DNA of 30,856 nt from a virus. Positions 12,099 to 30,777 of the stretch are shown piece by piece (position 1 is the stretch's first letter; the number at the start of each line of letters is the position of its first letter). The notes beneath the pieces were generated by a model that made no database searches, had not been told where the DNA came from, and saw only the letters and a list, made by a program, of their open reading frames with translations. Both the position numbers and the translations under genes were made by a program. The stretch lies in IMG/VR virus record IMGVR_UViG_3300045988_111723, positions 1 through 30,856 of that record. The stretch is one strand, 5' to 3'.

Positions 12099-12476
12099 TT
12101 AACCTCCCATCGCTAAAAATTCAAACGTTAAAAGTCGGATGGTGACGCTCTTGTCACTATCCTCAACAGGGGCAGCTCTGCCGTTGTAGAGATAATAGGT
12201 CAGCTCGTCGGAGCAAGAGGAAAAAACATCCAGCTCATCCAGCAGGGTCTGCGCAATATGATCCACCTCAGAGGGCAGACCATTGCCGGAGATGGTGCAG
12301 GACAGCGTACCGCGAAGGGTGCTGTCGCTCGTCCACACCGTCGCGGTGTAGCAGATGCGCGGAAAACCCACCTCGCGGCTCCGCTCGTAGAAAACGGTGT
12401 CCACAGTGGACACTTCGCGGAGTTTTTCGCCAATGGCAGCGGTAAACCGCTCGAACGTGGTACTAGTCGGTGTCAT
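12099..12476 (-). CDS. Tail completion / tail terminator-type protein (putative)
   Basis: Assignment by synteny. Start chosen at 12476 (GGAG 6-9 nt upstream); the ORF track starts at 12500. Contains one copy of the 17-bp palindrome. Confidence 0.65.
   Translation of the reverse strand: MTPTSTTFERFTAAIGEKLREVSTVDTVFYERSREVGFPRICYTATVWTSDSTLRGTLSCTISGNGLPSEVDHIAQTLLDELDVFSSCSDELTYYLYNGRAAPVEDSDKSVTIRLLTFEFLAMGG
12397..12413. repeat. 17-bp perfect palindrome GTGTCCACAGTGGACAC, copy 1 (inside a CDS)
   Basis: Identical to 19221-19237 and 28564-28580. Confidence 0.95.
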
Positions 12477-12933
12477 TTGGCTCCATCTCCTCGTCATCAA
12501 TCAGGCCGAGGGCGCGGTTTTCGTCCTCGACGGCAGACAGATAGTGTCCCTCTATCCTGCGTATCTCGTCAATGTTTTCCTGTACGGCGGTCGTCAGGAT
12601 TTTCCTAGGTGGCTGGTTTCCGTCGCCGAGTTCCTGCAATACGCCGTACCATGTATCGTGTTTGATACCGACCTGAAGATCGGTCTCTTTTTTTCGCACC
12701 CACCAAGAAAAAGCCCCGCTTTTTCCATAAAAGCGGGACTTGATGGTGAGTCTGCCCATGTGCTTGCGGGCGCCGGATGCAGTACGGGCCTGTTTGACGA
12801 CGTACTTGCCAACATCGCGGAGGGCGGCGCGGCTGAGTTCCTGAATGGTGTACTTCGTTCGGTCGATGTTGGACTGGTAGGTGACGCCATTCTTGGTGAT
12901 CTTCATGCCGCTGGGCGGGTTAGCCATCTTCAT
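12463..12933 (-). CDS. HK97 gp10-family head-tail joining protein
   Basis: WYGVLQELGDGNQPPRKIL motif plus synteny. Start at 12933. Confidence 0.75.
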   Translation of the reverse strand: MKMANPPSGMKITKNGVTYQSNIDRTKYTIQELSRAALRDVGKYVVKQARTASGARKHMGRLTIKSRFYGKSGAFSWWVRKKETDLQVGIKHDTWYGVLQELGDGNQPPRKILTTAVQENIDEIRRIEGHYLSAVEDENRALGLIDDEEMEPNDTD

Positions 12934-18965: not shown

Positions 18966-18999
18966 AAATAAAATAAGCGGCCCCTTGCGGAAGGGCCGC
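18966..18999 (-). terminator. Intrinsic terminator between the tRNA-like gene and HNH
   Basis: Minus strand reads GCGGCCCUU-CCGC-AAGGGGCCGC (one bulge) followed by UUAUUUUAUUU. Confidence 0.6.
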
Positions 19000-19064
19000 C
19001 GCATCCAGAACTATCGCGGCTGGATGCCCCGCTATTCGCGCCGCCCCCTCAAAGGGTGCGCGTC

Positions 19065-19210
19065 TGGTGCTGTCAGTTGGATTCGAACCAACGCCCACAC
19101 CGCATTAACTTCTGCGCTGGCTAAGCGCAGGGTCATGGGTGGTGTGTATCGCCAATGTTACCTTGCATGTATCAGATGCAAAGCGCTCTAGCCCGCTAAG
19201 CTATGGCAGC
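19065..19210 (-). tRNA. Atypical 146-nt tRNA-like gene (GAU-type loop on an 8-bp stem, 68-nt insert, encoded CCA)
   Basis: GCTGCCA-TA-GCTT-AGCGGGCTA-GAGC ... GTTGG-TTCGAAT-CCAAC-TGACAGC-A-CCA. Six of seven acceptor pairs form. The D and T arms are canonical. Confidence 0.5.
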
Positions 19211-19220
19211 ATATCGAAAA

Positions 19221-19237
19221 GTGTCCACAGTGGACAC
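19221..19237. repeat. 17-bp perfect palindrome GTGTCCACAGTGGACAC, copy 2
   Basis: Identical to 12397-12413 and 28564-28580. On the minus strand it is followed by TTTT. Confidence 0.95.
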
Positions 19238-19300
19238 CCGCCGGGAGTTATCGAATCCACAACGAACGGTCTGGGTGTCTCACCCAATAACCGCATTTTG

Positions 19301-19349
19301 ATTATAGCATACGAAAAACGAACATTCCGGTCATTCCGGTCGTTTCGGT
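19301..19349 (-). promoter_or_regulatory. Putative late promoter: three tandem 9-mers plus an extended -10
   Basis: Minus strand reads ACCGAAACG ACCGGAATG ACCGGAATG, a 16-nt spacer, then TGcTATAAT. No -35 match. Confidence 0.5.
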
Positions 19350-19838: not shown

Positions 19839-20496
19839 TTATTGTTTGCTCCACTGTTCGGCCATCGCTTTTGCAATTCCGGGGAATGTTTTCGCTCGAT
19901 TTTTGGCACGGTCAGTGGTAAACATGCCTTTATGCTGCTCTCCATGTTTGTGAGAGTAAGATCCGGATGGGCACCACGTTGCAATGGGTTCAACAACGTC
20001 TGTTGATTGTAGCGGCTCAAGCTCTTTCAGCCAAAGGCAGGTTTTCTTTGTGTACGGATGCCCGAATTGGTACGGTTGGATGGTCTGCGTATATTCAGGC
20101 ATACAGAACACTTTGCTAGGTACTGGATTCTCTATGCAAATTTTCGGAATGTCTGCCCACCAAAATCGCATGAACAAATCTCTGCCTTGAATCCCAAGCA
20201 TCACACGGTCAGCTTGCAACTCGTGATTTTTCCACAGGTGACGTGCGCCAGCGTTAGATAGATAGGTACAAGGCGGATGAGCAATGAGCAGATCCCAGTT
20301 TCCAATTTCGTGCTCTACGCCATCCATTGTCACGATTCCCCCCCCCCTCAAGAACTTTCAGCGCATCGCCCAGAATGTGCCATTCAGGGTGTCCGCCGGA
20401 TGGCTCCTGAATATCGCAGGAATAGGCTTCGTGACCTCTCGCACGAAACGCTTTGCACACTTCCTGTGATTCTTCGCAAGCAACAAGCACTCTCAT
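19839..20496 (-). pseudogene. Phage cytosine-5 DNA methyltransferase-like gene interrupted at a G10 tract
   Basis: The N-terminal ORF (MRVLVACEESQEV...) and the C-terminal ORF (..DLLIAHPPCTYLS..CIENPVP..TFPGIAKAMAEQW) are offset by one base at 20338-20347. Confidence 0.75.
20338..20347 (-). repeat. Homopolymer G10 (C10 on plus strand)
   Basis: Counted directly. G9 or G12 would fuse the two methyltransferase ORFs. Confidence 0.95.
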
Positions 20497-21618: not shown

Positions 21619-22415
21619 TTTTGTCCCTCCGCGATCTCCATCACTCTCTCCGCCAGCGTCCGATACTGCGCGGCGGGCTTGCATTTCGGCGCGTACTGGT
21701 ACAGAGGCCGGTGAGACGCCTTAGACTCCTTCACCCTCACGCTGCTGTCGATGTGCAGCACCGACCCATCAGCGGCCCGGAAGGTCGGGATGTCCAGACC
21801 AACGAGCTGGTTGATGGTCTTGGTGGAGTAGCGGCCCCGGTCGTACTTGGTGGCCAGCGTGCCCATGATCTCCAGACCCTCGTTGTACTCGGCCTTGACG
21901 TCCCTGATCTGCGTCATGATCTCGTCCAGCCCATCCAGCGCCCACTCGTCGCAGTCCACCGGGATGATGACCCAATCGGCGGCAACCAGCGCGTTGATGG
22001 TGGCCATGTCGATATCGGGCGGGCAGTCGAGAATGCAATAGTCGTACTCGCTGCGGTAGGGGTAGAGCGCCCGCCGGATGCGGTCTTCCCGCCGCCGGGC
22101 CAGATCAAACATCACGCTCTGGTTGGCGAGCAGCAACTGCATATTGCTGGGCGCGAGGTCGATGTCATCCCAGTCGGTGTGTACGATGACCTCGCTGAGC
22201 TTTGCGTCCAGCGTCAGCACGTCGGCGATGGTCTTCTGGTGTCCACTCTGGACACGTTCGAAGAATTTTGTGGTGTTCGCTTGCTTGTCCAGATCCATGA
22301 CCAGCACCCGCTGGGCGTAGATGCCGGACAGGATACAGGCCAGATTACAGGCGGTGACGGACTTGCCAACGCCGCCCTTGAGGTTGATGATCGCGATGGT
22401 AGCCATGTTTCTCAT
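21615..22415 (-). CDS. parA: ParA-family partition ATPase
   Basis: Deviant Walker A IAIINLKGGVGKS. 266 aa. GAGGAG RBS. Confidence 0.92.
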   Translation of the reverse strand: MRNMATIAIINLKGGVGKSVTACNLACILSGIYAQRVLVMDLDKQANTTKFFERVQSGHQKTIADVLTLDAKLSEVIVHTDWDDIDLAPSNMQLLLANQSVMFDLARRREDRIRRALYPYRSEYDYCILDCPPDIDMATINALVAADWVIIPVDCDEWALDGLDEIMTQIRDVKAEYNEGLEIMGTLATKYDRGRYSTKTINQLVGLDIPTFRAADGSVLHIDSSVRVKESKASHRPLYQYAPKCKPAAQYRTLAERVMEIAEGQK

Positions 22416-28563: not shown

Positions 28564-28580
28564 GTGTCCACAGTGGACAC
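28564..28580. repeat. 17-bp perfect palindrome GTGTCCACAGTGGACAC, copy 3
   Basis: Identical to 12397-12413 and 19221-19237. Lies between convergent genes. Confidence 0.95.
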
Positions 28581-29051: not shown

Positions 29052-29654
29052 ATGAACGAATATGATAAACGAATCGCCAAAGCTCTGGAAATGGCGCGGT
29101 CAAAGGCAGGAATCAGTCAAGAAAGGCTTGCCAAGCGGATGGGCGTAAGCCGCCCGACCATTGCGGGCAGAGAGCAAGGGGCATCCCCTGTCACGCTGGC
29201 CGATATTATCGATTGGTGCGTTTCGTGCGGCGTCCCGGCAAAGCGGTACACGGACGCCTGTATCCATCCGGGCCTGTTGGAGTATCTGGAGGACGACATC
29301 ACCACCGAGGAAAAGCGCCAGATACTGCACACCGTTGTGGATGAGATGTCCAACTATGAGGTGGACGGCTGGTTGTACCTCTACTATGGGAATCATGGGT
29401 CTGACCCTCTGGGCGTCCTGACTGAGGTGCTTGCGAACTTGCACACGCCTCTGCGTGACCGCGTGACCATTGTCAACGCGATCATCGGCCATTACCGGAT
29501 GGCCCGCTCGACGGACACAGACCCAGACCCCAACGGGATACAGCCGGTCATGCCGATCGTGCAGCAAGCAAGTGACTGCGGCACCGAGGCAGCCCGCCGG
29601 GGCGATGATGCCTATTCTGTGAGGGAGGTGGATAGAGATGCCGAGAAAAAGTAA
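29052..29654 (+). CDS. XRE-family HTH regulator with an uncharacterised C-terminal domain of about 130 aa
   Basis: ISQERLAKRMGVSRPTIAGREQG is an HTH motif. GGGGGCGGG RBS. The stop overlaps the integrase start. Confidence 0.85.
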   Translation: MNEYDKRIAKALEMARSKAGISQERLAKRMGVSRPTIAGREQGASPVTLADIIDWCVSCGVPAKRYTDACIHPGLLEYLEDDITTEEKRQILHTVVDEMSNYEVDGWLYLYYGNHGSDPLGVLTEVLANLHTPLRDRVTIVNAIIGHYRMARSTDTDPDPNGIQPVMPIVQQASDCGTEAARRGDDAYSVREVDRDAEKK

Positions 29655-30777
29655 AGGGATGCGCCCAGATGGGCGCTGTCAGATCAAGCGAAAGATGCCG
29701 GATGGAAAATACCGGTTTTTTTACGGGAAAACAAAATCTGAAGCAGAGGCAAAATACAAAGAAGCACTAATCCAAAAAGCGGAGGCCGAAAGTAAGGCAG
29801 AGCTTTTTGAAATTGTTGCTGCTGATTATTGGGACAAGCTGCTCAAACGCATAAAAGACGGGACAGATTCAACATATAGGTCTAACTATGACCGTTGCGT
29901 CCAATTTTTTTCGGGCAAACGGATGGATGAAATTACGCCGGTCATGATCGTAAGTTTTGGGCAGTCTCTCAAAGATGAGGGGTTATCAACAAGCACGATT
30001 CAAAACGCAGTCAGCATATTGCGAGGGATTTTCAGGGGCTGGCGGCTTGCAAGCGGATCATCTTACAATCCGATGCAGGATATCAAGTCCCCCGCCGGGA
30101 AACCGGCTGTCATACGCGAGCCGCCGACAGACCGGGAACTCGCATTGTTTCGGGCCCACCCGGAAGGATTTGGGCTATGTGCATGGATGTTGATGTATAC
30201 AGGGTGCCGTTTGGGCGAGCTGATCGCACTCAGATGGGACGATATCGATTTTGAGACCAACAAAATATATATCAACAAAAAAGTATCATGGGCGGGTGGC
30301 GGCACCAGAATCCAATCGCCCAAAACAGCCAACGGCGTGCGCGTCGTGCCGCTTATGCCGAAACTCAAGCGGCAAATAGAACCCCGCAAGGGGACTCCGT
30401 TGGAGTATGTTATAGGAGGCCTGACAAGGCCGCTGACAGATGCAGAATATCACAGCCGGTGGCTTGCGTATTGCACGGAGCTGGGACTTGTTCAGCCGAG
30501 TGAGAGTAAGACAAGATACAGAGATAGCCGCCGAGGCCCAAAAGCGGCTAAAAATCCATTGCCGCCTGTAATGGAGCCCACCGTTACGGCTCACCAGTTC
30601 CGGCACTCGTTCGCGTCGGACTTATACGATGCCGGTGTTGGAGTGCTGGAGGCAAAAAAGATCATGGGTCACGCGGACATTTCGACAACATACAAAATAT
30701 ACACTCATATCCGAGAGCGCAAGCTAAAAGATGCCACCGAAAAGATGATTAAATTTTATGATGACGAGGATAAATAA
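29638..30777 (+). CDS. int: Tyrosine integrase
   Basis: C-terminal catalytic pattern RLGELIALRW...HQFRHSFASDL...MGHADISTTYKIYTH. Adjacent to attR. Confidence 0.95.
   Translation: MPRKSKGMRPDGRCQIKRKMPDGKYRFFYGKTKSEAEAKYKEALIQKAEAESKAELFEIVAADYWDKLLKRIKDGTDSTYRSNYDRCVQFFSGKRMDEITPVMIVSFGQSLKDEGLSTSTIQNAVSILRGIFRGWRLASGSSYNPMQDIKSPAGKPAVIREPPTDRELALFRAHPEGFGLCAWMLMYTGCRLGELIALRWDDIDFETNKIYINKKVSWAGGGTRIQSPKTANGVRVVPLMPKLKRQIEPRKGTPLEYVIGGLTRPLTDAEYHSRWLAYCTELGLVQPSESKTRYRDSRRGPKAAKNPLPPVMEPTVTAHQFRHSFASDLYDAGVGVLEAKKIMGHADISTTYKIYTHIRERKLKDATEKMIKFYDDEDK

Follow-up and report, generated by a model that had tools for sequence, protein, structure and literature searches.

Transfer RNA (tRNA)-like molecules that carry structure beyond the usual cloverleaf are known from several systems, and in this study they are compared with a 146-nt tRNA-like gene on the minus strand, positions 19065–19210, of a 30,856-nt stretch of viral DNA (IMG/VR virus record IMGVR_UViG_3300045988_111723, positions 1 to 30,856), the whole of which is called the window here. 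Class II tRNAs (Leu, Ser, bacterial Tyr, and Sec) resemble the family to which this gene belongs in that they have extra, helix-closed structure between positions 44/45 and 48 and keep the tRNA core and the 15:48 pair. Their arms, however, are simple hairpins of no more than ~20–24 nt that start right after position 45, whereas the extra part in the family is 65–85 nt long, begins with a conserved linker of 14–16 nt, and contains a pseudoknot; the family also differs in having a 4-bp D stem, as in class I tRNAs, and an anticodon arm that is often non-canonical.

Phage tRNAs are known or proposed to counter bacterial tRNA-cutting defences (PMC11464382, PMC10264068). The anti-defence tRNAs of T5 (tRNA-Lys, tRNA-Thr, and tRNA-Asn against PARIS AriB) and of mycobacteriophages (PMC11464382, PMC12409363, PMC10264068) are like the family in their place in phage tRNA clusters, in the types concerned (Lys UUU, Asn GUU, and Thr), and in having loop substitutions; they are of ordinary size, with decoding shown or predicted, whereas the family is marked by its large extra domain, and several classes in it apparently cannot decode. 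Oversized gut-phage tRNA genes with a conserved insert and no known splicing mechanism have also been reported for the Lak megaphages as "enigmatic introns" (bioRxiv 10.1101/356790). Going by that description, the Lak inserts were recognised with tRNAscan in eukaryote mode, i.e., at anticodon-loop-type positions, in ~540-kb Prevotella phages, whereas the insert in the family lies in the variable loop, has a defined structure, and is carried by 30–60-kb temperate phages. Finally, transfer-messenger RNA (tmRNA) and YrlA-type Y RNAs likewise combine a tRNA-like acceptor/T-arm module with a non-tRNA domain, which contains pseudoknots in tmRNA, but the extra part in these RNAs replaces the anticodon arm, whereas the family has intact D and anticodon-type arms, its domain in the variable loop, and no tag reading frame.

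It is well supported by sequence comparison that the element in the window is a genuine gene whose product is a structured RNA derived from tRNA and that its family has not been described. It appears to be a recurrent, fast-evolving, and unannotated gut-phage tRNA derivative, in which the tRNA shape was kept, normal decoding features were lost, and a pseudoknotted domain was gained. As for the function, we tentatively favour a non-decoding tRNA mimic, i.e., a decoy or inhibitor, aimed at host tRNA-targeting defences, and the structural statements are far more secure than this functional reading.

The tRNA-like gene and its insert

Read on the minus strand from its 5' end at 19210, the gene consists of the acceptor strand GCTGCCA, U8 and A9, a D arm (GCTT-AGCGGGCTA-GAGC), G26, an 8-bp stem (CTTTGCAT/ATGCAAGG) with the 7-nt loop CTGATAC, 68 nt of insert, a T arm (GTTGG-TTCGAAT-CCAAC), the acceptor partner TGACAGC, the discriminator A, and an encoded CCA at 19067–19065. 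These letters are exactly those given in a preliminary description of the stretch. The gene represents class A of the family, and its parts are as follows, all on the minus strand.

19065–19210, minus: whole tRNA-like gene (Rfam RF00005, 38.3 bits; our own covariance model R1, 95.6 bits, E ~1e-24)
19204–19210, minus: acceptor 5' strand GCUGCCA, with its partner UGACAGC at 19069–19075 (6/7 pairs, C5.A68 mismatch)
19185–19201, minus: D arm, stem GCUU/GAGC (19201–19198 with 19188–19185), loop AGCGGGCUA including G18 and G19 (sequence, Rfam, and family pairing)
19161–19183, minus: anticodon-type arm, 8-bp stem CUUUGCAU/AUGCAAGG and 7-nt loop CUGAUAC at 19175–19169 (sequence; the stem covaries in the family)
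19147–19160, minus: conserved 5' linker U-AAC-A-U-UGGC-GAUA, with UGGC at 19154–19151 and A19156 paired with U19148 as a lone R:Y pair (motif in 55/55)
19096–19146, minus: closing helix P1, CACA 19146–19143 / UGUG 19099–19096, and the part enclosed by it (covariation and centroid fold)
19112–19130, minus: hairpin P2, CUGCG 19130–19126 / CGCAG 19116–19112, loop CUUAGCCAG, with GCCA at 19121–19118 (covariation)
19093–19095, minus: GGC tail between P1 and the T stem; C19093 is position 48, the Levitt partner of G15 at 19196 (15:48 covariation)
19076–19092, minus: T arm GUUGG-UUCGAAU-CCAAC (sequence and Rfam; T stem 100% paired in the family)

The Rfam tRNA model RF00005 matches 19068–19210 on this strand above its gathering score of 29, with an E value of 8e-5 over the whole window, and its alignment places 84 nt where the model expects 15. 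The gene has a 7-bp acceptor stem, a 4-bp D stem with a GG loop, a 5-bp T stem with a UUCRAAU loop, U8, and the 15:48 pair. It departs from a canonical tRNA in the anticodon arm, where U33 and A37 are present in a 7-nt loop, yet the stem has 8 bp rather than 5 bp, and in the variable region, which has 68 nt compared with 4–5 nt in class I tRNAs or a hairpin of at most ~24 nt in class II tRNAs. The hallmarks of a tRNA and the insert at the variable-loop position, both claimed in the preliminary description, were thus borne out, the base before the T stem covarying with D-loop position 15 (Levitt pair), and the 8-bp anticodon-type stem noted there is present in the sequence and covaries in the family.

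ARAGORN called neither a tRNA nor a tmRNA in the entire window, and no standard tool resolves the element as an ordinary tRNA with other boundaries, an outcome that the preliminary description had named as a test of its proposal. On the element strand in the region 19000–19300, Rfam gave nothing besides tRNA at E ≤ 10, and this applies to tmRNA and to YrlA and other bacterial Y RNAs (RF02553). The earlier judgement that the insert is too short for a group I intron and that the topology does not suit a tmRNA or a YrlA-type RNA is borne out by these results. The known small self-cleaving ribozymes (hammerhead, twister, twister-sister, pistol, hatchet, and HDV-like, i.e., hepatitis delta virus-like) gave no match over the element, whether the gathering score or E ≤ 10 was applied, and seven loci with other classes of the family had none at E ≤ 1. 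The insert itself has no Rfam family match, and full-text literature searches found such an insert nowhere described.

The energy of single-sequence folding was unexceptional (z = −1.37), and the centroid fold contains the anticodon-type stem, the closing helix, the inner hairpin, and the T arm. The element is considered to be more than a product of chance because of the Rfam score and 55 distinct relatives with compensatory changes, not because of the folding energy. The hairpin and closing helix reported within the insert in the preliminary description are both real and covarying; the register of P1 favoured by the relatives is CACA/UGUG, which in the window copy can be extended to the originally proposed CACACC/GGUGUG, and a 4-bp pseudoknot between UGGC 5' of P1 (19154–19151) and GCCA in the P2 loop (19121–19118), with the family form UGGY:RCCA, had been overlooked.

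Family members and covariation

Exact-pattern scans of IMG/VR gave near-identical copies of the gene, and one contig (L054) contained a second copy with another acceptor stem and another anticodon-type arm that shared the insert motifs with the window copy. Three more pattern scans of IMG/VR and one of metagenomes followed, and the classes obtained were labelled A (the window), A2, B, C, D, E, F, G, H, I, and J. A covariance model (R1) built from 14 representatives recovered, at a cut-off of E ≤ 1e-14, 91 copies, of which 55 are distinct, in 89 loci from phages or gut metagenomes, and RF00005 scored above its threshold in every class (38.9–47.8 bits in those other than the window's). Judged by these matches, the gene is one member of a gut-phage family of at least ten sequence classes, so far undescribed; the original observation holds, although from the one sequence it could not show that there is a family. 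The named sources of members are human-gut or faecal metagenomes throughout.

In INPHARED, the window's region gave nothing, and a class B query gave only GenBank MT839005.1, in which one member is present and unannotated. The window element was not found in PLSDB. A scan of genome contigs for GGATTYGAACC N{45,65} TGTRTCRCCA had no family member among the 120 matches listed, which were mostly TGGTGAYACA(AT) promoter-like −10 boxes before ordinary tRNAs (Streptomyces, Saccharibacteria, and others). With nothing found by ARAGORN and the GenBank member left unannotated, the family escapes standard annotation.

All classes share the same anatomy. The 5' half consists of the acceptor strand, U8-R9, a 4-bp D stem with a GG loop, N26, the anticodon-type arm, position 44, and the linker; the 3' half then continues with P1, which always opens with a C-G pair, a variable junction, P2 with the loop YUA-RCCA, and a second variable junction, followed by the 3' strand of P1, 2–3 nt of the form G(G)Y, the T arm, the acceptor 3' strand, and the discriminator. 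The insert is 65–85 nt long in the relatives, and the linker motif C-R-Y-UGGY-GA-Y-A is kept without exception among the 55 distinct members. The genes of classes A, A2, and D include the CCA, whereas those of all others lack it.

The borders of the insert are sharp and constant (after position 44, and 2–3 nt before the T stem), and its motifs are conserved across different tRNA bodies, as might also be the case in a precursor tRNA with a new type of variable-loop intron, from which the pseudoknotted segment of 68 nt would remove itself or be removed by enzymes of the host or the phage, the halves then being rejoined. Removal of the insert in silico gives canonical-size tRNAs in most classes, and the report of "enigmatic introns" in phage tRNAs (bioRxiv 10.1101/356790) also speaks for this explanation. 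However, no known splicing mechanism fits, since the insert is too small for a group I or group II intron, lacks a bulge-helix-bulge motif, and has no Rfam ribozyme match. Group I introns of tRNA genes have ~200 nt or more and a P1–P9 core and are located in the anticodon loop, whereas the insert has 68 nt, lies 3' of the anticodon-type stem, and gives no Rfam intron match at E ≤ 10; as for the bulge-helix-bulge motif, no 3-nt bulges around a 4-bp helix can be drawn, the 5' junction leading into 14 nt of single-stranded linker and the 3' junction coinciding with the end of P1. Moreover, the junctions J3 and J4 are free in sequence and length, unlike a catalytic core, an insert-less allele of the same tRNA body was not found in IMG/VR, and excision would leave an 8-bp stem or tri- or pentaloops in several classes, including that of the window. 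An intron is, in our estimation, rather improbable; if present, it would represent a new type of splicing in bacteria or phages.

The pairing was evaluated in two alignments. MAFFT misaligned the insert when applied to the raw sequences, and a hand alignment of the 14 representatives, fixed by N-padding, was used instead. In this alignment, which was fitted to the structure and hence leans towards it, 98.7% of 531 cells were standard pairs, and 33 of 46 pairs changed on both sides; none of 500 shuffles reached these values, and only 28–44% of cells were paired when the 3' partner was slid by 1–3 columns. The alignment made by the model (A7) was similar for the nested helices, with 97.1% of cells paired and compensatory changes in 26 of 33 pairs (31–46% paired in the slid controls) among the 55 distinct sequences, which are related and represent ~six to ten independent lineages, not 55. 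The preliminary description had taken a lack of conservation or covariation in its proposed stems as a sign against the gene, and both are present across the 55 relatives.

For the individual helices, the acceptor stem showed compensatory changes in 7/7 pairs with 98.7% of cells paired among the 55 distinct sequences, D-stem cells were 100% paired, and the T stem was 100% paired with compensatory changes in 3/5 pairs. In the hand alignment, changes on both sides were found in 8 of 9 aligned pairs of P1 (97.5% paired), and all 7 aligned pairs of P2 were compensatory. Position 15 and the base before the T stem were A:U in 43 and G:C in 9 of the distinct members, with two exceptions, and this Levitt covariation fixes the insert at the variable-loop position. 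The lone R:Y pair that brackets Y-UGGY-GA was Watson–Crick in 55/55 (G:C in 42 and A:U in 13), switching from G:C to A:U within class G. The acceptor mismatch of the window copy and its rejection by ARAGORN would be in line with a decaying tRNA pseudogene with a junk insertion. The mismatch, C5.A68, is private to this copy, all other unique copies having 7/7 acceptor pairs, and the 55 distinct sequences keep all helices by compensatory changes, the insert helices included, so that a pseudogene is most improbable.

Since UGGY lies 5' of P1 and RCCA lies in the P2 loop, their pairing forms a pseudoknot. The variable fourth pair is U:A in 42 and C:G in 10 members, with no mismatch, the 3 others being left unresolved by the regular expression used. 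That the insert is a new pseudoknotted RNA domain in a tRNA variable loop is, on this comparative evidence, well supported.

In the T-box antiterminator, a UGGN element pairs with NCCA, and the N:N pair covaries. The pairing in the insert is of the same UGGN:NCCA type, with a covarying fourth pair. It differs from the T-box in that a single RNA supplies both partners, its own 3' end mismatches UGGY at the discriminator, and no T-box architecture is present. The adherence to the T-box rule bears on the explanation that the tRNA body serves only processing and stability, as a scaffold for a non-mimic RNA module such as an aptamer, a sponge, or a receptor of NCCA 3' ends. What is conserved in all classes is the tRNA top half and the domain, not the anticodon loop, and the class I loop UGGCUAA is complementary to a second UUAGCCA in the domain, both of which would suit such a scaffold. 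However, few nucleotides are conserved, most of them taken up by the pseudoknot, the genomic context suggests no ligand or partner, and the main clade conserves a Lys-type loop; a scaffold of this kind is, in our judgement, unlikely. It is somewhat doubtful, though conceivable, that the domain is an autonomous RNA module on a tRNA chassis that would act as the active part of an RNA anti-defence factor, inhibiting tRNA-targeting immune nucleases, or, in view of the covarying UGGY:RCCA, as a receptor or mimic of the NCCA ends of tRNAs. If so, the RNA would represent a new class of phage non-coding RNA, not a tRNA variant. Under any reading, it is a well-defined new RNA motif, and ~55 distinct sequences with strong covariation suffice for an Rfam-type family and for direct experiments.

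Anticodon-type arms and the proposed function

The anticodon-type arm differs considerably among the classes. In class A, the loop is CUGAUAC in the window and CUGGUAC in near-identical copies (L062 and L070). The loop that had been likened to an Ile(GAU) anticodon loop is present, but the identity is unstable, with GGU in the near-identical copies and a triloop in the sister class. In class A2, the triloop AAG sits on an 8-bp stem that contains a bulge, and a 6-bp stem with a loop of 5 nt is found in classes F and J. A stem of 5 bp and a loop of 7 nt are present in classes B, C, D, E, G, H, and I, but position 33 is A or G there, the loops being CAUUUAA (the commonest), GAGUUAA, AAUUUAA, CGUUUAA, CAGGUAA, and UGGCUAA, and the arm of classes B, G, and H is that of an ordinary phage tRNA-Lys (Phass-1: CCGCC-CUUUUAA-GGCGG) with U33A. 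The discriminator also varies within and between classes (A or U in A2; the sister classes G and H differ as C versus U). When the insert was deleted in silico, ARAGORN called Ile, Thr, Lys, Asn, and other tRNAs; for the full sequences in intron mode, the anticodons and intron positions that it gave were inconsistent. The window's class certainly does not decode if the 8-bp stem forms, and classes A2, F, and J, as well as a short allele described below, are likely not to decode either, as judged from their arms.

Three normal-sized phage tRNA-Lys(UUU) genes in IMG/VR (L287, L288, and L290) have C33 in the loop CCUUUAA, which indicates that a non-U33 base alone does not mean that a tRNA is non-decoding. 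The loss of the near-universal U33 seems to be recurrent in phage tRNA-Lys genes, going by their loops. In class I (L281, 1292–1451), the anticodon-type loop UGGCUAA exactly complements UUAGCCA, and the insert has two UAGCCAA motifs, a match that hints at docking of this loop on the insert.

Further candidate features were considered and rejected. Pairing of the anticodon loop with the hairpin loop (UUAA/UUAA) is unconserved, a 7-nt match being present in class I only. For the hairpin loop, the D loop (GGCUA/UAGCC) and the segment just 5' of P2 (UGGCU/AGCCA) were considered as partners, but these pairings are unconserved across classes or sterically impossible, and readings of class B as a C/D-box-like element or kink-turn (CUGA/UGAUG) are not kept within the class.

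The arms of classes B–E, G, H, and I, with a 5-bp stem, a 7-nt loop, A37, and the anticodons UUU, GUU, GGU, and GCU, raise the question of whether the gene could be a working, nuclease-resistant elongator tRNA (Lys, Asn, Thr, or Ile) that keeps the domain in its mature form, the domain and purine 33 shielding it while it decodes. Such a tRNA would be consistent with the location of members in phage tRNA clusters, with the conservation of the loop in the main clade while the stems covary, with C33 in insert-less phage tRNA-Lys genes, and with the nuclease resistance proposed for loop-mutated phage tRNAs (PMC10264068). It does not agree with the 8-bp stem in the window's class, the tri- and pentaloops in A2, F, J, and the short allele, or the inconstant discriminator (A/U in A2; C in one and U in the other of G and H), and an ordinary tRNA-Lys is already present in some of the same phages. 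In addition, the synthetases for Lys, Asn, and Thr (LysRS, AsnRS, and ThrRS) are class II enzymes that face the variable-loop side of the tRNA, so that a bulky domain there should hinder charging, and the 65–85-nt domain of the family should clash with them. We consider a decoding tRNA unlikely; were it to exist, it would stretch the variable-arm tolerance of the translation machinery.

The non-decoding mimic is favoured on the following grounds. Lys, Asn, and Thr types are targets of tRNA-cleaving defences, which phages counter with variant tRNAs: for the PARIS nuclease AriB, Lys UUU and Thr UGU are prime targets and Asn GUU is a secondary one (PMC12409363), phage tRNA variants neutralise AriB (PMC12409363, PMC11464382), and anticodon-loop changes in phage tRNAs are predicted to escape anticodon nucleases (PMC10264068). 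The members are phage-borne and Lys/Asn/Thr/Ile-like, with U33A relative to the phage tRNA-Lys arm in classes B, G, and H. The rapid allelic turnover of the locus, described below, fits an arms-race gene. We infer that the tRNA core and the domain are kept by selection and, in the main clade, also the Lys/Asn/Thr-type loop with purine 33.

As a mechanism, the RNA would be transcribed at the early/late boundary, be released, as its tRNA neighbours are, through RNase P and 3' processing, with CCA encoded or added, and accumulate as a stable L-shaped RNA without decoding, owing to a stem 3 bp too long in the window's class, tri- or pentaloops in sister classes, and purine 33 in the Lys/Asn/Thr-like classes. 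It could then act as a decoy or competitive inhibitor of host factors that recognise tRNAs of the Lys, Asn, Thr, or Ile types, most plausibly tRNA-cleaving defence nucleases. The folded-back domain may either block synthetases, the ribosome, and cleavage or be the binding surface itself, and the tRNA body would double as a processing and stability scaffold. If a decoy or inhibitor is correct, this would be an RNA-only counter-defence and a natural case of the "tRNA scaffold" idea.

Several points weigh against the mimic. Insert-deleted sequences are called by ARAGORN as ordinary Lys, Asn, and Thr tRNAs; the largest clade (B, G, and H) keeps a canonical 5-bp stem and the strongly conserved loop CAUUUAA; and insert-less tRNA-Lys genes with the same stem in IMG/VR have C33 in three cases and U33 in one. 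No conserved protein family is tied to the gene among its neighbours, the connection of these phages and their hosts to a defence system is presumed, and the family may be functionally mixed. A priming or structural role of the RNA, which the preliminary description had put forward as a speculation, found no support.

Genomic context and allele turnover

From its gene content, the window represents a temperate phage or prophage of the siphovirus type and of the gut Clostridia type. An integrase (29638–30777) and a cI-like helix-turn-helix protein (29052–29654) are encoded on the plus strand. On the minus strand, NinB/Orf, SSB, a replication initiator, ParA, a ParB-N protein, and a split DNA methyltransferase precede the RNA gene in this order, and an HNH protein (18948–18655), a small-terminase candidate, TerL (18193–16544), portal, S78 protease, capsid, and later a GH25 lysin follow it. 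By TerL, the nearest cultured relatives are Butyrivibrio phages (56% identity), uncultured human-faecal phages also being related, and the identical TerL protein was seen on metagenome contigs only. The signals around the gene are as follows.

18966–19000, minus: terminator-like hairpin (19000–18976; 10 bp, 7 G-C) and T-run, between the RNA and the HNH gene (terminator scan)
19301–19309, minus: extended −10-like TGcTATAAT, ~90 nt upstream of the RNA (read in the sequence; not called by the sigma-70 scan)
19323–19340, minus: tandem direct repeat ACCGGAATG x2 where a −35 element would be (read in the sequence)
19221–19237, minus: 17-bp palindrome GTGTCCAC-N-GTGGACAC followed by TTTT, ending 10 nt before the RNA 5' end (sequence; precedes classes A, A2, and D)

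The gene had been proposed to have its own promoter and terminator. The terminator was found by the scan, and the extended −10 is present, but no −35 accompanies it and the two-hexamer sigma-70 scan called no promoter there, so that the TGcTATAAT element is a putative promoter; together with the ACCGGAATG repeats, it looks like an activator-dependent, perhaps late, promoter. The position directly upstream of the HNH and terminase genes, also pointed out earlier, is true for the window but does not indicate a specific partnership, as this is the usual slot for tRNAs and morons and three terminase types are found in other classes. In the family, the slot lies downstream of a RusA/RecU gene and a gene for a sigma-region-4-like regulator and upstream of terS/terL, the downstream terminases being TerL_ATPase+HNH (the window), Terminase_3, and Terminase_6N.

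This slot, between early genes (or the sigma-region-4-like regulator gene) and terS/terL in all contexts examined, together with the hairpin and TTTT upstream and the strong terminator downstream in the window, would suit a cis-acting element of the late transcript, such as a site of RNase P processing or a signal for antitermination, located after the late promoter and ahead of the terminase operon. However, the same slot is common for ordinary phage tRNAs, full tRNA tertiary signatures and an encoded CCA would be needless for a cis signal, the close relatives L003–L005 are without the element, and the terminase types downstream are unrelated. A cis-acting element is quite improbable and is the weakest functional rival. 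A packaging RNA with loop–loop pairing like that of phi29 was rejected on account of the three unrelated terminase types and the absence of the element from close relatives.

An ordinary tRNA on the same strand lies within 1 kb in 68 of the 89 loci (Trp in 57, Met in 14, and Lys(UUU) in 8), tRNA-Trp(CCA) being by far the commonest. Every family member is preceded by A-U at −2/−1, as are 90 of the 115 ordinary tRNAs of these loci, which points to the same 5' processing context as that of the tRNA neighbours. A mini-open reading frame (ATG-NNN-NNN-TAG) over the 5' end in every class was rejected as a feature, since its AT is this common dinucleotide and its TAG is U8-A9-G10. An ordinary tRNA-Lys(UUU) with U33 lies beside members of class D (L230, L259, and L284), class H (L273), and class I (L281), and classes D and H themselves carry a Lys-type loop.

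The 146-nt allele was found in two, and an allele of 109–111 nt in three, of the contigs read whose TerL protein is identical to that of the window. The short allele has a triloop on the anticodon-type arm (6-bp stem) and a plain 9-bp variable-arm hairpin beginning with CAUUG(G/A)CG, and in these phages with 99–100% identical TerL, one linker nucleotide replaces U8-A9. It occupies the same site at the following positions.

L002, 2983–3091: short allele
L293, 1289–1397: short allele
L294, 1201–1309: short allele
L295, 274–384: short allele

Between the window and L002, the element is 57% identical and the next 1.5 kb is 90% identical; between the window and L103, the element is 86% identical and the flank 57%. 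On these comparisons, the locus is an accessory and fast-turning one.

The 17-bp palindrome is also found at 12397–12413 and 28564–28580 of the window, with a variant at 22239–22255 inside parA, and several copies per locus are present in L051, L062, L054, and L095. The copies are mostly intergenic, just upstream of ribosome-binding sites or beside the tRNA cluster, and some are followed by a T-run. The palindrome could be an operator, a parS-like site, given the ParA and ParB-N proteins present, or a hairpin terminator.

Upstream of the RNA in L001 (~2864–2955), a conserved ~100-nt stretch that is flanked by CCCGGCGGG repeats and ends in GCGCCGTCCGCTCCA separates the palindrome from the promoter-like element; this stretch is also present in L002, L051, L062, L076, L091, L230, and L234, is absent from the window, and has no Rfam match. 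L068, L075, L118, and L208 have two or three direct repeats of GTGGCGATAC(A) immediately upstream of a tRNA-Met 3' half, which look like arm-type sites at an integration junction; the decamer TGGCGATACA is common to these repeats and the insert only because the search pattern demanded it.

Elsewhere in the window, the DNA methyltransferase (phrog_757) is frameshifted over the overlapping frames 19839–20351 and 20254–20496 on the minus strand, as a pseudogene or through a sequencing or assembly error. A full-length DUF3800-VIII RNA (Rfam RF03075; 81.7 bits compared with a threshold of 40.2) at 2681–2744 on the minus strand is a second structured non-coding RNA in this phage, and the phage contig L050, which also has a class A member, carries a RAGATH-5 RNA (Rfam RF02685, labelled a ribozyme in Rfam; 67.2 bits) at 12739–12789.

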